From: Candidatus Enterousia sp.
GTDB lineage: Bacteria; Pseudomonadota; Alphaproteobacteria; Rs-D84
DNA length: 64,000 bases
Direction of reading: 5' to 3'
NCBI GenBank assembly: GCA_045592905.1
Contig: JAZNVR010000023.1
Location: 12,986 to 76,985 of the forward strand
Below, in pieces: positions 15,803-59,757 of this stretch. Within the stretch, counting starts at the first letter, position 1; each line of letters opens with the position of its first letter. Below the pieces are notes generated by a model. That model saw only the letters and a list, made by a program, of their open reading frames with translations, was not told the DNA's origin and ran no database searches. Position numbers and translations under genes: made by a program.

Positions 15803-15830
15803 TTGAAAAAGATGTAATTTTTGATAGAAT
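15803..15830 (+). promoter_or_regulatory. sigma70-type promoter for RNA leader copy 1
   Basis: TTGAAA, a 16-nt spacer, then TGaTAGAAT (extended -10). Confidence 0.55.
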
Positions 15831-15836
15831 ATAATT

Positions 15837-16048
15837 TGAACTGACAGGGATGTCGGTTCGGGCCTTAGAAAAGCCCAACAGTTTCGGTGCGAATGCATCG
15901 TAATCCGATTAAAATCGGTGTCTTTGCACCGTTATTTTTACCCCCGATAATGGTCGGGGTGCCGTTGTAATATATTGAACGCAACGGGGTCACTAAACTG
16001 TTGATTTTTCTAACACCCCGACCGTCATTTCTGTGGCGGTTTTTGTTT
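15837..16048 (+). promoter_or_regulatory. structured RNA leader, copy 1 of a two-copy unclassified motif ending in an intrinsic terminator
   Basis: It shares sequence blocks and four compensated helices with 30570-30818. The terminator is ACCGUCA/UGGCGGU plus a U-run at 16021-16048. Confidence 0.6.
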
Positions 16049-16121
16049 AGGGGTAATATTTGTTTTCAACCACCACCTTAAAGTATGAAAATGTGTTACC
16101 CCACCAATTTGTGGGGGGTAT

Positions 16122-16991
16122 ATGAGAAAGATAATTTGTCTGTGTCTGATGATATTATGTGTTTCTGCACATGCACGTGTGTTGCATGTGGGTGATAATA
16201 CAATAAAACTGTCACAAACAAAAACAACAGACCCCGCCCTGCACGTGCGGGTTGATAATGAAGTATGGTATGGGATGATGTGCACGAATTTCAAGCAAGA
16301 TTCATTACACATAAAATATAATGACACGGTATACGATGTTACCAACCCCTTTGCCGACACAACAAACTATACATATGACACAGACGGCCGATTAATTGGT
16401 GCAAATGAAAATATTTATTTGGAAAACATTGATAAAGCATGGATAGATACTGGAATTTTGCCATCTTTGAATTTATTAACACATATCAGTGTTTATGCAT
16501 TAAACTATACAGGAAACGTCATTTATGGCACAGGAGGGCCAAAAGATGCCTCCGTCATGGACGTTGAAACATACCGTTTATTTAACTACAACGGCCAAAT
16601 ATATTTTGATATAAATGGAATAACTAATAGACTTGTTGGAGAATCTTTAAGTTTTGATAAAAATATTAAATATAATTTTGAACTTGGTAATCGTTATGTC
16701 AAAGATTTAAATTCTGGTTATATCATAGAAAGAACACCGCTAAAAACACTAACATTTATTCCAAACGATTCTCATAAGCTACGTTTGTTTGATAGATATA
16801 TTGGAATAATTAGAATATTTTACACAAAAATCTGGGATAATGATACGCTTGTTCGGCATTTTGTGCCGGTGCCGTGTGGGTTAAAAATTGGGGATTTTGT
16901 TGTGCCAAGTAACGGTATGTGGGATATTGTGGAACAAAAATTCTATGGCAATATGGGAACTGGCGATTTTATTTATGGCGTGGATGAGTAG
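16122..16991 (+). CDS. secreted hypothetical protein (possible lectin/tail-fibre-like C-terminus)
   Basis: Signal peptide MRKIICLCLMILCVSAHA. From memory, the C-terminal LVRHFVPVPCG...GMWDIVEQKFYGNMGTGDF resembles a motif of an uncharacterised family common in gut bacteria and phages. This is unverified. Confidence 0.7.
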   Translation: MRKIICLCLMILCVSAHARVLHVGDNTIKLSQTKTTDPALHVRVDNEVWYGMMCTNFKQDSLHIKYNDTVYDVTNPFADTTNYTYDTDGRLIGANENIYLENIDKAWIDTGILPSLNLLTHISVYALNYTGNVIYGTGGPKDASVMDVETYRLFNYNGQIYFDINGITNRLVGESLSFDKNIKYNFELGNRYVKDLNSGYIIERTPLKTLTFIPNDSHKLRLFDRYIGIIRIFYTKIWDNDTLVRHFVPVPCGLKIGDFVVPSNGMWDIVEQKFYGNMGTGDFIYGVDE

Positions 16992-28149: not shown

Positions 28150-30432
28150 ATGACAAACGAGAGAGAAACTTTTTTTCAGCCCTTGACAATGGTGGATTAT
28201 GATATCGCAGGAAATTCGTTTCGTGCGTATTATGATGTAGATAAAAAACTTGTCTTTGTGATTGATTTCTTGACCAGTGATATAAAACCAAATGTTTTGT
28301 TGGTAATAAATCCTGTTGGGGATCGTAAATGGGATGATATTCTGGAAAATGATTATGGCGTTGATTTAGAAACTGTTCGCCCAAAGAAAGATAATAAATA
28401 TCAGAAATTAGATATTGAATATGCTGGTTTGTCTGAATATGATGAACTGATTGCTGCATATGAATCTGGTAATAATTTGAATCAAAAACTGGATGCGTTG
28501 ACAGAATTTCGCCATGTTGCTGCAACACGTGCCGCAATTGAACGTTTGGGGGCTGCTGAATTAACGGTTAAACGCAGTCGTGAAACAATTGATAAAACAG
28601 ACGTTAAAATACAAGATTTGCAAGAAAAATTGAAAAAATTACGCTTAAAGTTGTCTGATGCAAGACAATCTATTGGTAAAGAACCAACCAAGCAGTCTGC
28701 ATCCAAAATATTGCGTATTGAATCACAAATAGATTCTACAAATGATAAGATAAAACGTGCAAAAAAACGCCTGAATAATGCACAAAATCGTTTAAGTGCT
28801 GCAGAAGATGAAATTGAAGTTGCACAGTATATCTTAAATAAATTAAAGGTAAATTTGCCTGCGGAACCTGTGCCGGCTCAAATTGTTGTATCAGAACCTG
28901 CACCTGTTCCTGTGGTCAATGATGATATTATATATGAAGAAACAAAGGCGGATGATATGGATGATGATGTAAAACCATTGTTTGATACAGACCCAAAAAT
29001 TCTTGATGAAGAAATTGCCTTTAAACCAATTAATTTTGGAACAGATTCAACAACAATCGTATCCAGCGGTTCGCAACCTGTAAACAACACGTTTACAGAA
29101 GATGTCAACGATGATACAGATGATGATTCCGAAGAAACTATGCCTGTCGTGTCTGTGCCGATGGGGGGGTATTCTGAAAATACAGAATATGAAGAAGATG
29201 ACGATGAAGATGAACAAAAACAAGAAAATATTGTTCAGCCATTGTCTTTTACACCACCGGTCAGTTTTGAACCTGTTGCAGAAGAATCTGACACAGAAAT
29301 AGAAAACGAAGAAAATACAACAAAACCTATGTTGGATGGGTTTACACCAATTCCATTTGGTTCTGAACATGAAGAATTAAACGTTTGGGAAGAACCTGTG
29401 ATTGATATGCCGACTGTTTATCCGATGAACGAAAATGCATCTGAAAAACAAGAAAGTACAGAACAAAATGTAATGCCTGTGCCAGAATATGTTTCGGAAC
29501 CAGTTGTTGCTGATACAAATGATGTTGCTGTTGCACCTGTTACATCCAGTTTGCGTCCTGTGTCCCCTATTTCTGGTGGTGCAGATGTGGCACCTGTGGT
29601 GGCTGTTGCCCCGGTTGCAGGGGGAAATAAAAAACCAACAATGCTGTATTATGTTTTATTGATTGTTTTGATTGTTTTGTCTGTGTTTACATTGTGGGTT
29701 TATCAGAATTCTGCAAATGATGTTATGCCTGAACTTGGGGTAAAGACAGAAACAGCCGCTGTTGTTTCAGAATCAGAAGATGTTGTAACTGATGTAGCCC
29801 CTGTGGCGGTGCCAGACGTTGTTGACGAAGAAGTTGTTGTTACAGAAGATATTGCAGAAGAAGTTGTCCCAGAAACAACAGATGTGGTTGTGCCAGACGT
29901 TGAGCCAACACCAGTAGAAGTTACAGAGCCTGTTGTTGAAACTGTTGTTGCGGATGCAACAATTGTTCCCGTTACACAGGAAAAAACAGAAAATACAGAT
30001 ACTGATGTTGCCGAACAGGCGGACGTGATAAGCCCGTTTATAAATTTATCTGCTGATACAATATTTAGAAATGTGCCAGATGCACCAGAACCAGAACCAA
30101 CTAAAATTCCAACCGAAGAAGAAATATTGGCATCAAAACCTGCCTATGGTGTTTCGCAGAATGAGAATATGTTTGTTGCAGCACCAGAATATGAAACAGA
30201 TGTTGATATTGTTGCACCTGTTGAAGAAGTGTCAGCACCGGTTGTTGAAATCGCAGAACCAACAGTTGTCACAGAATATGCAGAAGAAGAATATATGGAA
30301 GAAGAAACCTGTTCTGATGGCAATCCACCTGATATGTATGGGTGCTGTACTGGTGAAGATTTTGTCTTGTTGCCAGATGGCGAACGTGCGTGCTGTGCAG
30401 AAAGTACAGGCGAATGCTTCCCGCCAATGTAA
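28150..30432 (+). CDS. 760-aa acidic bitopic protein: cytoplasmic coiled-coil, one TM, V/E/P/T-rich exterior, C-terminal 7-Cys knot
   Basis: TM KKPTMLYYVLLIVLIVLSVFTLWVY sits mid-protein, with long D/E-rich low-complexity regions. The end is ETCSDGNPPDMYGCCTGEDFVLLPDGERACCAESTGECFPPM. Confidence 0.75.
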   Translation: MTNERETFFQPLTMVDYDIAGNSFRAYYDVDKKLVFVIDFLTSDIKPNVLLVINPVGDRKWDDILENDYGVDLETVRPKKDNKYQKLDIEYAGLSEYDELIAAYESGNNLNQKLDALTEFRHVAATRAAIERLGAAELTVKRSRETIDKTDVKIQDLQEKLKKLRLKLSDARQSIGKEPTKQSASKILRIESQIDSTNDKIKRAKKRLNNAQNRLSAAEDEIEVAQYILNKLKVNLPAEPVPAQIVVSEPAPVPVVNDDIIYEETKADDMDDDVKPLFDTDPKILDEEIAFKPINFGTDSTTIVSSGSQPVNNTFTEDVNDDTDDDSEETMPVVSVPMGGYSENTEYEEDDDEDEQKQENIVQPLSFTPPVSFEPVAEESDTEIENEENTTKPMLDGFTPIPFGSEHEELNVWEEPVIDMPTVYPMNENASEKQESTEQNVMPVPEYVSEPVVADTNDVAVAPVTSSLRPVSPISGGADVAPVVAVAPVAGGNKKPTMLYYVLLIVLIVLSVFTLWVYQNSANDVMPELGVKTETAAVVSESEDVVTDVAPVAVPDVVDEEVVVTEDIAEEVVPETTDVVVPDVEPTPVEVTEPVVETVVADATIVPVTQEKTENTDTDVAEQADVISPFINLSADTIFRNVPDAPEPEPTKIPTEEEILASKPAYGVSQNENMFVAAPEYETDVDIVAPVEEVSAPVVEIAEPTVVTEYAEEEYMEEETCSDGNPPDMYGCCTGEDFVLLPDGERACCAESTGECFPPM

Positions 30433-30458
30433 ATAAATTAAATATAATAATTCATCTA

Positions 30459-30480
30459 CAAGCGGTGCCAGCACCGCTTG
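30459..30480 (+). terminator. hairpin after the 760-aa gene (weak U-tract)
   Basis: CAAGCGGTGC-CA-GCACCGCTTG, then TATTTAT. Confidence 0.5.
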
Positions 30481-30535
30481 TATTTATATCGTTCTATTTA
30501 ATTTCTTTGCTAAATTGCAGGCAGTGTTTTTTTAT

Positions 30536-30564
30536 TTGTATATGAATAAAAAATCTGGTATAAT
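30536..30564 (+). promoter_or_regulatory. sigma70-type promoter for RNA leader copy 2
   Basis: TTGTAT, a 17-nt spacer, then TGgTATAAT (extended -10). Confidence 0.55.
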
Positions 30565-30569
30565 AATCT

Positions 30570-30818
30570 TGAAATCATAGGGATATGGTTTCGGGGACTT
30601 AAGAAATCCCGTATTTGGCGATACAGTGATGTATTGATATCCGACCAAGGTAAAATATTTGGCGCGGATGCGCTTTTTATTTTATCAAAAATCCCGATAA
30701 TTGTTGTCGGGGTGCCTGTGGCTATAACACAGTGCTGTGCACAAAGGCCACAGGGGTCATTCCAAATATGATTTTCTTAACACCCCGACCGTCATATTCT
30801 ATGACGGTTTTTGTTTTT
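30570..30818 (+). promoter_or_regulatory. structured RNA leader, copy 2 of the unclassified motif, ending in an intrinsic terminator
   Basis: It has the same blocks and helices as 15837-16048. The terminator is ACCGUCAU-AUUCU-AUGACGGU plus a U-run (30788-30818), and GGGG-N6-AUG follows. Confidence 0.6.
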
Positions 30819-30829
30819 CGGGGAAAACG

Positions 30830-31120
30830 ATGAAACGAATATTGTTTTTTGTATTTATGTTATTGCCAATATCTGCCACAGCATCAGATGTTGTGGCATT
30901 GCAGACGCAAATTGATTTATTGCGTAATGAAATAACACAACTGGATAAAGATTTAATGGAATGTAAACAGGGGTTAAAGGGGTGGACCGCTGCGACCGCA
31001 TTGGGCGCGGTTGGAACTGTGGCAACTGGGGTTGGTGCAACGATTCAAGGGGTCAGTTTGCATAAATTAAAAAAAGAACAACAACAAGAAAAACAAAAAT
31101 CAACCGAAACGGAAAAATAA
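30830..31120 (+). CDS. small secreted coiled-coil / glycine-zipper protein (paralogue 1)
   Basis: The ATG at 30830 follows GGGGAAAACG. Signal peptide MKRILFFVFMLLPISATA, a coiled-coil with a single Cys, then AATALGAVGTVATGVGATIQG. The 30737 start would lie inside the RNA leader. Confidence 0.7.
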   Translation: MKRILFFVFMLLPISATASDVVALQTQIDLLRNEITQLDKDLMECKQGLKGWTAATALGAVGTVATGVGATIQGVSLHKLKKEQQQEKQKSTETEK

Positions 31121-31509
31121 TGATTAGATATTTATTTGTTATTGGTTTGTTTATTTGTTTCGGCACAACAGTGTTTGCCAATGATATGTATATCCAAATA
31201 CTGAATGCACAGATTGAACAGTTGACTGCGGAACGCGATGCAAAACGCATGGAATTGGACGAGTGTCAAGATAAACAAAAAAAGATGAAGGTTGCAGGTT
31301 CTGTGACAATGGCAACAGCCGGTGTTGGTTTGGGGGTAAATATTGCATTGGCATCAAAACTTGCCAGCGAGAAATCTGGTGGTCCTTTGGCCAGTGGTGC
31401 CGGAATGCCACGGGATACAAGGTCACAAGAACAAAAGAATTGTGATAGTTGTCAAATGTTCAAAAAAAGGAATATATCACCGATGCCCGGTGAATGTAGT
31501 GGTTGTTGA
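31120..31509 (+). CDS. small secreted coiled-coil / glycine-zipper protein (paralogue 2) with Cys-rich tail
   Basis: Its start overlaps the upstream stop (TAATG). The layout is the same (LDECQD...AGSVTMATAGVGLGVNIALA), plus the C-terminal CDSC...GECSGC. Confidence 0.7.
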   Translation: MIRYLFVIGLFICFGTTVFANDMYIQILNAQIEQLTAERDAKRMELDECQDKQKKMKVAGSVTMATAGVGLGVNIALASKLASEKSGGPLASGAGMPRDTRSQEQKNCDSCQMFKKRNISPMPGECSGC

Positions 31510-31530
31510 TATATAAAAAAAGGAGAAAAA

Positions 31531-32193
31531 ATGAAAAAAATATCTGTTATATCGTTGGCTGCGTTGATTGGCGGGACGTGTGTTGCGTCTGCAGCAACAT
31601 TAAAAGAAACTTGCTTGGCAAATCCAGAATATTTTGTCTGGGTTGAAAAGACGTCTGATTGTGCAACTGTGCATCCATGTGAGGATCCGTCTGATCCGCA
31701 TTACGCATTTTATTGCAATACTGCATTCAAAGATATTCAGGTGGCAAGTGTTCGTGAAGCACAAGAATTGGCAAATTTGTTCGTGTCAAAACGTATGGGG
31801 GTAACGTGTTCTTTCTTGGCAGCACAAGACGCGAAGTTGGTTGGTCAAGATTATGTTGGTTGCAAAACATCAGATGGTGGATTTATAGAATTCGAATTTG
31901 ATGATTATTCTGAACATGGATCTTCTACGGCTGATTTTTCATATGAATTGGGTAAATGTATCGCGTATGGCGGGAAACCAACATTGGCTGATATTGCCAG
32001 TTCACAAGATGTGTTGGGTGTTCCGACAGAAGCGGGTTTAGAAGGTGGTATAGCTGTAAAACAAGAAAATTTAATTGGTGGTTCACGTAAGACAATTGAA
32101 TGCTATAATGTTAGTGAATCGCAGTGTAAAGAAATGTATTCTGATCGTGCGACTTACAACCCGACAAATAAATTGTGTACATTACATAGATAA
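31531..32193 (+). CDS. secreted Cys-rich hypothetical protein
   Basis: RBS AAAGGAGAAAAA-ATG and signal peptide ...CVASAA. 220 aa with about a dozen Cys. Confidence 0.75.
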   Translation: MKKISVISLAALIGGTCVASAATLKETCLANPEYFVWVEKTSDCATVHPCEDPSDPHYAFYCNTAFKDIQVASVREAQELANLFVSKRMGVTCSFLAAQDAKLVGQDYVGCKTSDGGFIEFEFDDYSEHGSSTADFSYELGKCIAYGGKPTLADIASSQDVLGVPTEAGLEGGIAVKQENLIGGSRKTIECYNVSESQCKEMYSDRATYNPTNKLCTLHR

Positions 32194-44425: not shown

Positions 44426-44429
44426 ATTG

Positions 44430-44745
44430 CAAGACAGGCATATAAGCCGGGTTCTGTTCTGCCACAAATCAGTTTTATACCATTTCGTGGTAGTGGACAT
44501 GATTAATCTGCATATTGCATTGCTGCATATGTCAAGCCTTCTACCCGCCCCCAATGTGGGACACATATGCGGAGGCCTATTTGAAGTTGCTGCACGCAGA
44601 GATTGCCCGTTTCACCCGAATTTAATCGTTTCGTCACTGTTGCTCTAATCGTCAGGTCGCCCTGCCCGGTATATTAGCCGGTGCGTTGTCCCATGCAGCC
44701 CGGACTTTCCTCTGATATTAATCAGCCATGCCCAGCCTGTCTTGT
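44430..44745 (-). ncRNA. rnpB: RNase P RNA, bacterial type A
   Basis: The reverse strand contains the universal GAGGAAAGUCCGGGCU (P4 5' side) and ACAGAACCCGGCUUAU (P4 3' side). P1 pairs AGACAGGC with GCCUGUCU at the two ends. Confidence 0.9.
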
Positions 44746-59350: not shown

Positions 59351-59437
59351 GGGCGTATGGCGGAATTGGTAGACGCGCTAGTTTCAGGTACTAGTGGTAG
59401 CAATACCTTGGAAGTTCGAGTCTTCTTACGCCCACCA
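59351..59437 (+). tRNA. tRNA-Leu (anticodon CAG)
   Basis: Acceptor GGGCGUA/UACGCCC, anticodon arm CUAGU-UUCAGGU-ACUAG, long variable arm, T-loop UUCGAGU, encoded CCA. Confidence 0.9.
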
Positions 59438-59446
59438 TTGTATTAT

Positions 59447-59522
59447 GGGGTTGTAGCTCAGTTGATAGAGCGCTACGTTCGCATCGTAGAGGTCGTGGGT
59501 TTGAGTCCCATCAGCTCCACCA
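59447..59522 (+). tRNA. tRNA-Ala (anticodon CGC)
   Basis: G3:U70 in the acceptor stem, anticodon arm CUACG-UUCGCAU-CGUAG, encoded CCA. The D-loop is AGUUGAUA and the T-loop UUUGAGU (A19/U56). Confidence 0.85.
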
Positions 59523-59670
59523 ACATTATATGCTAATTATTTTTGTTTTATACGTTATTGTATATAGTAGTAATTCCTTGATAGATTTAAGTAAATATTA
59601 ATTAATGTAATATTTTTTGCTTGCATATGTTAAATCATATTGATAATATCTAGGCGTTATTACACACGTC

Positions 59671-59757
59671 GGGGATATGGCGGAATGGTAGACGCTGAGG
59701 ACTTAAAATCCTTTGATCATTGCGATCGTGTGGGTTCAAGTCCCACTATCCCCACCA
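59671..59757 (+). tRNA. tRNA-Leu (anticodon UAA)
   Basis: Acceptor GGGGAUA/UAUCCCC, anticodon loop CUUAAAA, long variable arm, T-loop UUCAAGU, encoded CCA. Confidence 0.9.

Follow-up and report, generated by a model that had tools for sequence, protein, structure and literature searches.

The stretch of DNA analysed here, 64,000 nucleotides (nt) from a contig of Candidatus Enterousia sp. (JAZNVR010000023.1, positions 12,986 to 76,985; hereafter the window, whose own numbering is used throughout), encodes GcrA, BamD, MurJ, trigger factor and a class A RNase P RNA, together with two copies of one structured RNA leader, at 15837-16054 (copy 1) and 30570-30822 (copy 2) on the forward strand. Candidatus Enterousia belongs to the uncultured order Rs-D84, whose members have genomes below 1 Mb, with neither respiration nor the standard transporters but with a large number of uncharacterised membrane and surface proteins; they appear to rely on other cells (PMC12306168). 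Copy 2 precedes three genes (30830-32193) that a first-pass annotation had described as a cluster for secreted proteins, and signal peptides do open all three products. An open reading frame (ORF) start at 30737 had been rejected there, rightly; public gene calls give the same 96-amino-acid (aa) product from 30830. Between the terminator of copy 2 and this ATG there is no room for a separate promoter, and identical copies of the 96-aa protein were found only on gut metagenome contigs. Six window proteins had no Pfam match, and several other signal-peptide genes of the window have no leader. Coordinates of the leader elements are collected in Table 1.

Apart from two central hairpins, copies 1 and 2 align end to end in a pairwise alignment, sharing the blocks UUCGGG, AUCCGA, CCCGAUAA, GUCGGGGUGCC, GGGGUCA, GAUUUU and AACACCCCGACCGUCAU..CGGUUUUUGUUU. 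In the whole window there are exactly two occurrences each of the 17-mer AACACCCCGACCGTCAT and the 11-mer GTCGGGGTGCC, where 0.11 and 0.23, respectively, were expected. Both copies fold more stably than their dinucleotide shuffles (copy 2, -101.8 versus -64.0 kcal/mol, z -8.5; copy 1, -86.6 versus -57.0 kcal/mol, z -6.4), and in neither case did any of 200 shuffles do as well. They score 192 bits (copy 2) and 176 bits (copy 1) against a covariance model (R1), and a covariance-model search with default filters found no further copy in the window. Thus, the proposal that one conserved core recurs at 15837-16048 and 30570-30832, twice in 64 kb, was borne out by the alignment, the shared words, the fold z-scores and the covariance-model search. 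Segmental duplication, which had been named as a finding that would refute the proposal, is ruled out, as the likeness stops before the flanks and the helices of the two copies differ through compensatory changes. When the whole window was compared with Rfam at curated thresholds, the leader was unmatched and the only matches were RNase P RNA and three transfer RNAs (tRNAs); a permissive Rfam scan of 30400-30950 gave chance-level matches only.

Further copies, which the first-pass annotation had proposed to seek in related genomes, were found by pattern, profile and covariance-model searches, and more than 70 distinct relatives were recovered from genomes of Candidatus Enterousia or order Rs-D84 and from gut metagenomes. 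The first scan, with an exact pattern against one genome per GTDB species, gave about 40 true relatives, from metagenome-assembled genomes named Candidatus Enterousia or "Alphaproteobacteria bacterium" (rumen, colon and faeces). A profile search added copies outside the exact pattern, and a second scan, restricted by design to sequences that vary at a single helix position, contributed a further 42 or so from metagenomes of ruminant, human and termite gut. Among the loci collected, model R1 recognised 72 strong distinct members and four members of a divergent subfamily at 42-45 bits (L014:7746-7932, L029:662-870, L105:4594-4769 and L166:4316-4490), in which the architecture is unchanged and hpB is absent. 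Several loci of 8-13 kb hold two leader copies; by extrapolation, a rough estimate is about 10-30 copies per genome of less than 1 Mb. The leader is real, widespread in one clade and structurally well defined, and we found no literature that describes it or links Enterousia or Rs-D84 to an RNA motif. The pattern GTCGGGGTG..GGGGTYA..CACCCCGAC also drew about 60 genuine tRNA-Pro genes (Planctomycetota, Rhizobium and other phyla). Mimicry of tRNA-Pro was rejected: helix positions 8 and 9, beyond CGGGG, vary with compensation, and tRNA-Pro identity is not conserved. Neither ARAGORN nor the Rfam tRNA model found a tRNA-like cloverleaf at the leader.

The elements follow one order in the family: P1, S1 pseudoknot, P2, P3, hpA, hpB, hpC, hpD and terminator. 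Covariation was measured on a structural alignment of 72 sequences, in which the nested helices had been fitted to the model, so that the counts lean towards structure. Standard pairs fill 93.1% of cells (76.2% after shuffling), compensatory double changes occur in 60 of 76 pairs, and the covariation score is 0.481 versus 0.185 for shuffles, of which 0 of 500 were as high; slid controls gave 0.07-0.09. Two independent checks gave the same picture. In an ordinary MAFFT alignment, the cognate P2/P3 3' strand was the best of 37 partners for 34 of 37 sequences (-16.8 versus -6.9 kcal/mol), and an unbiased mutual-information scan over all column pairs recovered the same helices, plus G2:C4. Stem S1, formed by G1 and C1, consists of four pairs (GGGN with NCCC) and encloses the P2 5' strand, giving an H-type pseudoknot topology; it lies outside the covariance model and yet covaries (GC, AU, UA and UG), for example with GC58/UA3/AU2 at 37:49 and CG39/UG10/AU6/UA5 at 38:48. 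P2 is UUAGAAAA:UUUUCUAA and variants, and P3 is a 9-bp helix that differs in sequence in almost every copy, with four Watson-Crick pair types at most positions. The terminator (helix 12) is 95% paired, with 4 of 8 pairs compensatory and a U-run throughout (columns 301-312 of alignment A2). No pairing partner for the conserved junction AUAUCCGA was found in the mutual-information scan. One metagenome copy (L192:3828-4077, reverse strand) has the P3 5' strand of L190/L135 and the P3 3' strand of L164/L161, which cannot pair (-9.0 versus about -19 kcal/mol); this hybrid is either an assembly chimera across the conserved core or a product of recombination between leader copies.

The central domain of copy 2 had been read as larger, unrelated and a variable peripheral insertion. 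This was wrong, as the hpB form of copy 2, a GGCGCGGAUGCG(U/C)C hairpin followed by a U-run, is the majority form in the family, and it is copy 1 that has a minority short form at the same position. The terminator and the GCGC-GGAU-GCGC hairpin with its U-run (30661-30674), both named in the first-pass annotation, were flagged by the terminator scan. The hpB core (helix 8) has 5 of 5 pairs compensatory and is 94% paired, the outer A/U helices (6-7) 71-75%. In both window copies (30661-30686 and 15916-15940) hpB is a short G/C stem with a trailing U-run (UCUUUUUUUGUG in most members), the latter able to pair with an A-run further upstream; hpB might act as an early termination or pause site. 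Several other structural candidates were rejected. Pairing of G1 with the 3' CCCC, seen in the single-sequence minimum-energy fold, fails because changes in G1 (GGGA, GGGU) are compensated in C1 and not in C4. A GGUCA:UGAUU hairpin proposed by RNAalifold is without covariation, and geometry does not allow it beside P3, for which covariation is strong; it may be confined to the alternative fold. P1 (ACAGGGAUGU) resembles the CsrA consensus from systematic evolution of ligands by exponential enrichment; a CsrA-binding hairpin was discarded because the loop is GGGA or GAGA in the members read, so that some lack GGA, and the conserved feature is the GNRA loop. Similarity to isrK (17.6 bits, E = 0.11) is driven by the generic hairpin and U-run of hpB.

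The G2 segment (GUCGGGGUG) has two partners. It forms hpC with C3, and in copy 2 it is perfectly complementary to C4, whose bases G, A and C (30787-30789) are shared with the terminator stem. The first scan had fixed the sequences of both G2 and C4 and so was no test of this pairing. In the metagenome scan, G2 position 8 was any base but U and C4 positions 1-2 were free, and the partner base in C4 followed the change at position 8 in 33 of 34 distinct sequences. Over the 72 sequences, pairing of G2 with C4 is complete (100%; position 8, UA40/AU21/GU6/GC4/CG1; position 9, GC64/UA8). In the divergent subfamily all three boxes are altered together, C3 to CUCCAACC, G2 to GGUUGGAG(G) and C4 to CCUCCAACC, and an extra copy found by the profile search alone has the compensated variant GUCGGGGGG/CCUCCCGAC. 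Because both pairings covary and the boxes change together, C3:G2 and G2:C4 are both under selection, and these mutually exclusive pairings give the RNA two alternative folds. The first-pass annotation mentioned neither the pairing of G2 with C4 nor the pseudoknot of G1 with C1, nor that the 3' domain is akin to sRNA-Xcc1 (below). As a separate observation, the divergent boxes CUCCAACC, GGUUGGAG and CCUCCAACC resemble an anti-Shine-Dalgarno/Shine-Dalgarno pair.

Table 1. Elements of the two leader copies and the genes that follow them (window coordinates).
Feature	Position	Strand	Remarks
Copy 2 predicted sigma-70-type promoter	30535-30564	+	-35 TTTGTA 30535-30540, 18-nt spacer, -10 TATAAT 30559-30564; consensus match
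P1, 5'-terminal hairpin GAAAUCAUA-GGGA-UAUGGUUUC	30571-30592	+	GNRA tetraloop; 97% of cells paired; 8/9 pairs compensatory
G1 GGGGA	30593-30597	+	
P2 5' strand UUAAGAAA	30599-30606	+	
C1 UCCC	30607-30610	+	
P3 5' strand GUAUUUGG	30611-30618	+	Hypervariable among copies; 9/9 pairs compensatory; 97% paired
hpA, CGAUACA-GUGA-UGUAUUG	30619-30636	+	6/7 pairs compensatory; 97% paired
Conserved junction AUAUCCGA	30637-30644	+	Family consensus UAAUCCG / AUAUCCG; columns A70 T71 C72 C73 nearly invariant
hpB, GC-rich hairpin GGCGCGGAUGCGCU (30661-30674) and U-run	30647-30686	+	Terminator-like in terminator scan
C3 box UCCCGAUAA	30692-30700	+	5' arm of hpC, partner of G2; helix 94% paired
G2 switch segment GUCGGGGUG	30706-30714	+	3' arm of hpC; partner either C3 or C4
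hpD, hairpin with internal loop	30715-30754	+	Family consensus CUAUACAACAGGGG...CCCCAAAGG; 10/11 pairs compensatory
GGUCAU junction, P3 3' strand, GA linker, P2 3' strand	30755-30780	+	P3 3' strand CCAAAUAU 30762-30769; P2 3' strand UUUCUUAA 30773-30780
C4 box CACCCCGAC	30781-30789	+	3' partner of G2; ends in GAC, which is also the foot of the terminator stem
Intrinsic terminator GACCGUCAUA-UUC-UAUGACGGUU, then UUUGUUUUU	30787-30818	+	Stem 30787-30809: 10 pairs, 3-nt loop, T-run
Ribosome-binding site and first gene	30819-31120	+	CGGGGAA 30819-30825; ATG 30830; 96 aa; signal peptide MKRILFFVFMLLPISATA
Second and third cluster genes	31120-32193	+	Starts 31120 and 31531; 129 aa and 220 aa; both open with signal peptides
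Copy 1 leader including promoter	15803-16054	+	-35 TTGAAA 15803-15808, 16-nt spacer, -10 TAGAAT 15825-15830
Copy 1 P1	15838-15859	+	
Copy 1 G1/P2 5' strand/C1	15860-15876	+	
Copy 1 P3 5' strand	15877-15884	+	
Copy 1 hpA	15885-15900	+	
Copy 1 hpB core	15917-15930	+	
Copy 1 C3	15942-15948	+	
Copy 1 G2	15952-15961	+	
Copy 1 hpD	15962-15987	+	
Copy 1 P3 3' strand	15995-16002	+	
Copy 1 P2 3' strand	16006-16013	+	
Copy 1 C4	16014-16022	+	
Copy 1 terminator	16020-16048	+	
Gene after copy 1	from 16122	+	289-aa signal-peptide protein

Upstream of each window copy, the terminator of the preceding gene is followed by a promoter-like TTGnnn/TAnAAT pair. The -10 hexamer ends 5-6 nt before model position 1 in 58 of the 72 members (5 nt ahead of the first base in copy 2); it is TATAAT in 37 members and matches at five of six positions in 26, and the commonest spacer to a TTGnnn -35 is 17 nt (44/72). 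This predicted promoter, about 135-200 nt upstream of the Xcc1-like domain, should put +1 at P1, the 5' GNRA hairpin. At the other end, a same-strand ORF follows the leader in 69 of 72 members, most starting 5-25 nt past the end of the model. The role of a structured leader ahead of genes, as first proposed, is thus supported by the predicted promoter at its first hairpin, its intrinsic terminator and the closely following gene. The product of the gene upstream of copy 2 (28150-30432) is 760 aa long, strongly acidic and of low complexity, has a single hydrophobic segment and is Cys-rich at its C-terminus (CSDGNPPDMYGCCTGEDFVLLPDGERACCAESTGECFPPM); no Pfam match was obtained for it.

By a crude hydrophobicity test, 51 of the 69 downstream genes have a signal-peptide- or lipoprotein-like N-terminus. 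Their products include Cys-rich proteins of 100-450 aa, lipoproteins, proteins of 531 and 1397 aa with Listeria-Bacteroides repeats and a trypsin-like protease, and also EcoRI-type adenine methyltransferases and other cytoplasmic-looking proteins; one member of the divergent subfamily precedes a GT2+GT8 glycosyltransferase. The association with exported proteins that had been noted for the two window copies therefore holds for the signal-peptide-like majority and fails for the methyltransferases, the glycosyltransferase and the cytoplasmic-looking proteins; their theme is cell surface and host interaction, not secreted proteins alone. A module of about 50 aa, roughly L-x-x-G-D/T-x-x-x-L-x-x-x-K/E-x-T-x-P-S/A-L-x-V ... 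Y-G/H, was seen in many leader-controlled proteins. It is N-terminal in the window protein of 16122-16991 (RVLHVGDNTIKLSQTKTTDPALHVRV) and C-terminal elsewhere (...FSLWAEKYTEPSLVVEYNDQKCYGKL...YHLVN), occurs also among the downstream proteins of L034, L084, L099, L114, L036 and L081, and has no Pfam match; it may be a common anchoring or sorting domain. The spacer after copy 1 (16060-16125) contains a 21-codon TTG-initiated ORF with AGGGG ahead, whose TGA overlaps the ATG of the 289-aa gene (ATGA); it may be fortuitous, since the orthologous spacer in L012 differs.

Ribosome-binding sites of GGGG type were found at 32 of 55 leader-downstream genes versus 9 of 55 other window genes (p ~1e-5), an enrichment, and are present at ordinary genes as well. 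These G-runs could pair with the C-boxes of the leader; in minimum-energy folds of eight read-through RNAs, sequestering of the G-rich site by a C-box gave inconsistent partners. Antisense targeting of the downstream start by the P3/P2 3' strand was rejected, as cognate and non-cognate energies were alike (-9.95 versus -9.84 kcal/mol; region from the terminator to about +100, Mann-Whitney p = 0.62, n = 69).

The 3' part of the leader resembles sRNA-Xcc1 (RF02221), a small RNA (sRNA) family that also occurs in integron cassettes, prophages and plasmids. Of 25 related copies, 15 match the RF02221 model over its full length (1-87) at 30.3-50.2 bits, below the 53-bit cutoff; the best E-value was 6e-6 in a 68-kb search, and the matching stretch runs from G2 to just past C4. 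Bona fide sRNA-Xcc1 members score 63-69 bits, and the two window copies gave no match even at E<=10. Both RNAs can be drawn as a three-way junction with a 9-bp G/C-rich closing helix, which in the leader is G2:C4 (GUCGGGGUG/CACCCCGAC; GGUCGGGUG/CACCCGACC in an E. coli prophage). The first hairpin, with an AUACAA...AA internal loop, corresponds to hpD, and GGUCA...UGAUU to the second hairpin, in the same position and followed by GCC. In both, the closing helix has a C-box upstream that is complementary to its 5' strand, and its 3' strand overlaps with a hairpin downstream. Most members have the AUACAA hairpin (CUAUACAACAGGG...CCCAAAGG); copy 2 has a degenerate version of it, and copy 1 retains only a loop. 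The second hairpin, GGUCA:UGAUU, is invariant, and because its loop bases take part in P3, this hairpin and P3 exclude each other. Each of the two RNAs stands immediately before a co-oriented gene; Xcc1 precedes symE in integron cassettes (bioRxiv 10.1101/2025.06.18.660453) and a gene for an ORF6N protein in APSE phages (bioRxiv 10.1101/2020.03.17.996009).

The two RNAs also differ. The Xcc1-like part makes up only the last ~85 nt of a leader RNA of ~215-290 nt, which adds P1, the S1 pseudoknot, the long-range P2/P3 helix, hpA, hpB and a true intrinsic terminator, and whose second-hairpin loop and junction strand pair with its own 5' region. Moreover, the leader is, by the estimate above, high-copy and is followed by surface- or secreted-protein genes, not prophage or toxin genes. 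Since its scores lie below the cutoff and most of the RNA is outside the RF02221 model, the leader is best filed as a distant, enlarged relative of sRNA-Xcc1, a new variant and not a member.

Bona fide Xcc1 loci show a similar layout. In an E. coli O157 prophage (NZ_CP044141.1), Xcc1 lies ~40 nt upstream of the antA/antB antirepressor gene, with a CACCCGA box upstream of it, and the next hairpin (GACCGCCAG...CUGGCGGUU) overlaps the closing helix as the leader terminator does. In N. gonorrhoeae NZ_CP119140.1 (2.17 Mb), two tandem Xcc1-like elements of 68.8 and 33.9 bits precede a gene beginning MSIQTFSFNRFSVSFQENGYLNATAIAEQ, the weaker second copy being followed by a terminator-like hairpin and the gene; this record is filed among plasmids, although its length is that of a complete N. 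gonorrhoeae chromosome. Wherever loci were examined (E. coli, Neisseria and Enterousia), the 87-nt model covers only the 3' portion of a longer leader, which has a C-box upstream, a hairpin or terminator that overlaps downstream, and a gene next to it. This suggests that in many genomes an "sRNA-Xcc1" annotation marks the leader of a neighbouring gene. A further feature of the E. coli prophage element is that its loop CUUAUUUG complements ACAAAUAAG twice, in the 5' leader and abutting the GGAGG site of antA (ACAAAUAAG-GAGG; L195:1423-1431, 1555-1562 and 1612-1624). This complementarity suggests a possible translational control of antA/antB like that of C4/immI, and we have seen no description of it for Xcc1.

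The C4 antisense RNA (immI) of phages P1 and P7 follows a logic similar to that of the Xcc1-type leader, which the E. coli Xcc1 locus shows directly. RNase P cuts phage C4 RNA from its precursor. C4 RNAs have three stems and are co-transcribed with the gene they control, and their variable loops have complements in the same transcript, with covarying specificity of loop and target; C4-like RNAs are cut from longer transcripts and can be multi-copy with variable loops (PMC5320573). In contrast to C4, the variable strand of the leader has no cognate complement at the downstream start (the energy test above was flat), and control is predicted to act on an intrinsic terminator, not on translation and Rho. 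Rfam scans of the window and related loci gave no match to C4 (RF01695).

We consider it somewhat better than an even bet that the leader is a cis-acting transcription attenuator of the Xcc1 type, forming the 5' end of its own transcription unit. Transcription would start at the P1 hairpin, and the RNA would fold into a pseudoknotted core of S1 (G1:C1), P2 and P3 with hairpins hpA, hpB and hpD. Pairing of G2 with C3 would free C4, allow the full terminator of 8-10 bp to form and halt polymerase 10-25 nt before the ribosome-binding site, leaving an RNA of ~230-250 nt and no mRNA. If G2 paired with C4 instead, it would close the sRNA-Xcc1-like three-way junction and remove the three bottom pairs of the terminator, and the weakened terminator would let polymerase read into the surface-protein gene or genes. 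Some factor (a small molecule, a protein, RNA processing or temperature) would pick between the folds. It is established that the family exists, that its helices are real, that G2 has two exclusive covarying partners and that the arrangement of promoter, terminator and gene is constant; we infer that the alternative fold alters termination efficiency and that a factor selects the fold. As in intrinsic-terminator attenuators, a hairpin with a U-tract stands between promoter and gene, and a conserved helix is exclusive with the terminator. The succession of junction, overlapping hairpin, Shine-Dalgarno sequence and ATG at the E. coli prophage and N. gonorrhoeae loci also speaks for attenuation.

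Several points weigh against attenuation. The start site, termination and read-through of the leader are all things that we infer. The fold with hpC, P2/P3 and the full terminator is favoured over the G2:C4 fold by 11.2 +/- 3.7 kcal/mol, and this ranking, by nested-structure energies, is never reversed. Termination would therefore be the expected default, and the G2:C4 fold would need promoting; with such a deficit it would depend on a factor, on kinetic trapping, on loss of the 5' domain or on a pseudoknotted arrangement, a kind of structure outside the scope of the energy model. In addition, G2:C4 overlaps the terminator by only 3 nt, and a hairpin of 5-6 bp with GUUUUU remains, so that anti-termination may be partial. 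A few members lie 70-180 nt from the next gene, and in 3 of 72 no ORF was called. Finally, sRNA-Xcc1 was described in Xanthomonas campestris as an 88-nt free-standing sRNA with mapped ends (PMC2996969).

This last point leads to the first rival, a free-standing sRNA of Xcc1 or C4 type (~230-250 nt, or a cut product of ~100 nt) that acts in trans, downstream expression being incidental read-through. A predicted promoter of its own, a strong terminator, the full-length RF02221 matches of the 3' domain, and the processing and multiplicity of C4-like RNAs would all suit it, as would the disfavour of the Xcc1-like fold while the 5' domain is attached, which is expected if that fold forms after processing. 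We nevertheless think it unlikely, as the P3/P2 3' strand pairs with the 5' part of the same molecule and lacks cognate-specific complementarity downstream, tight coupling to a co-oriented gene without room for a promoter is not expected of an independent sRNA, and no trans target is known.

A special case of the attenuator, a riboswitch for a small molecule, ion or second messenger with the P3-closed junction as aptamer and hpC, G2:C4 and the terminator as platform, seems to us more doubtful still. The RNA is large, with GNRA loops, a pseudoknot, a terminator platform and many conserved unpaired junction bases (UAAUCCG, UGCC, GGGGUCAU and GA), and it shares with terminator/antiterminator riboswitches a structured 5' domain, mutually exclusive helices that include an intrinsic terminator, and functionally themed genes downstream. 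These genes, many and unrelated, have the cell surface as their one theme, which recalls the cyclic di-GMP riboswitches placed before adhesin and pilus genes. On the other hand, they do not encode the transporters or biosynthetic enzymes from which a metabolite could be guessed, and the relatives Xcc1 and C4 are RNAs of antisense or immunity type and not ligand sensors; unlike in such riboswitches, the alternative helix overlaps the terminator by 3 nt only. Rfam gave no riboswitch match for the window or the related loci.

Recombination sites for antigenic variation are present at the Mycoplasma vsp/vsa loci, and a DNA-level cassette of comparable kind (a promoter and 5'-region module spread by recombination or gene conversion, or such a recombination site) could be imagined here from the multiple copies that include the promoter, from their position before variable surface proteins, a methyltransferase and a glycosyltransferase (gene classes of contingency loci), and from contig L192, which joins the 5' half of one paralogue to the 3' half of another, but it is very improbable, as hundreds of compensatory changes keep the RNA helices while the sequence diverges, which speaks strongly against it, gene conversion or a protein-binding DNA site would conserve sequence and not pairing, there are no terminal repeats, the flanks are unrelated, and the L192 hybrid may be an assembly chimera.

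Returning to the attenuator, its origin can be suggested only tentatively, and we hold the following to be rather doubtful: in a gut alphaproteobacterium with a reduced genome, probably dependent on partners, an Xcc1/C4-like module of phages or integrons may have been domesticated and amplified across the genome to perhaps 10-30 self-contained promoter-leader-terminator cassettes, through which a shared signal would switch the surface proteome, a methyltransferase and a lipopolysaccharide-type glycosyltransferase on and off together. If true, this would be a new class of global riboregulator or an orphan riboswitch, and the sRNA-Xcc1 family in general would be cis-acting leaders and not trans-acting sRNAs. 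RF02221, widely auto-annotated as a "virulence sRNA", needs rereading. One RNA design before many surface genes offers a handle for defining a host-interaction regulon from sequence alone, and the family amounts to a testable two-state switch with natural compensatory mutants. In an organism with few regulators, the leader is a likely explanation for coordination of the surface.

Two other groups of RNA genes were noted in the window. The class A RNase P RNA (44426-44744, reverse strand; 187 bits) is short in the P3 and P12 regions, and a tRNA cluster at 59351-59757 on the forward strand comprises tRNA-Leu(CAG), tRNA-Ala(CGC) and tRNA-Leu(UAA).

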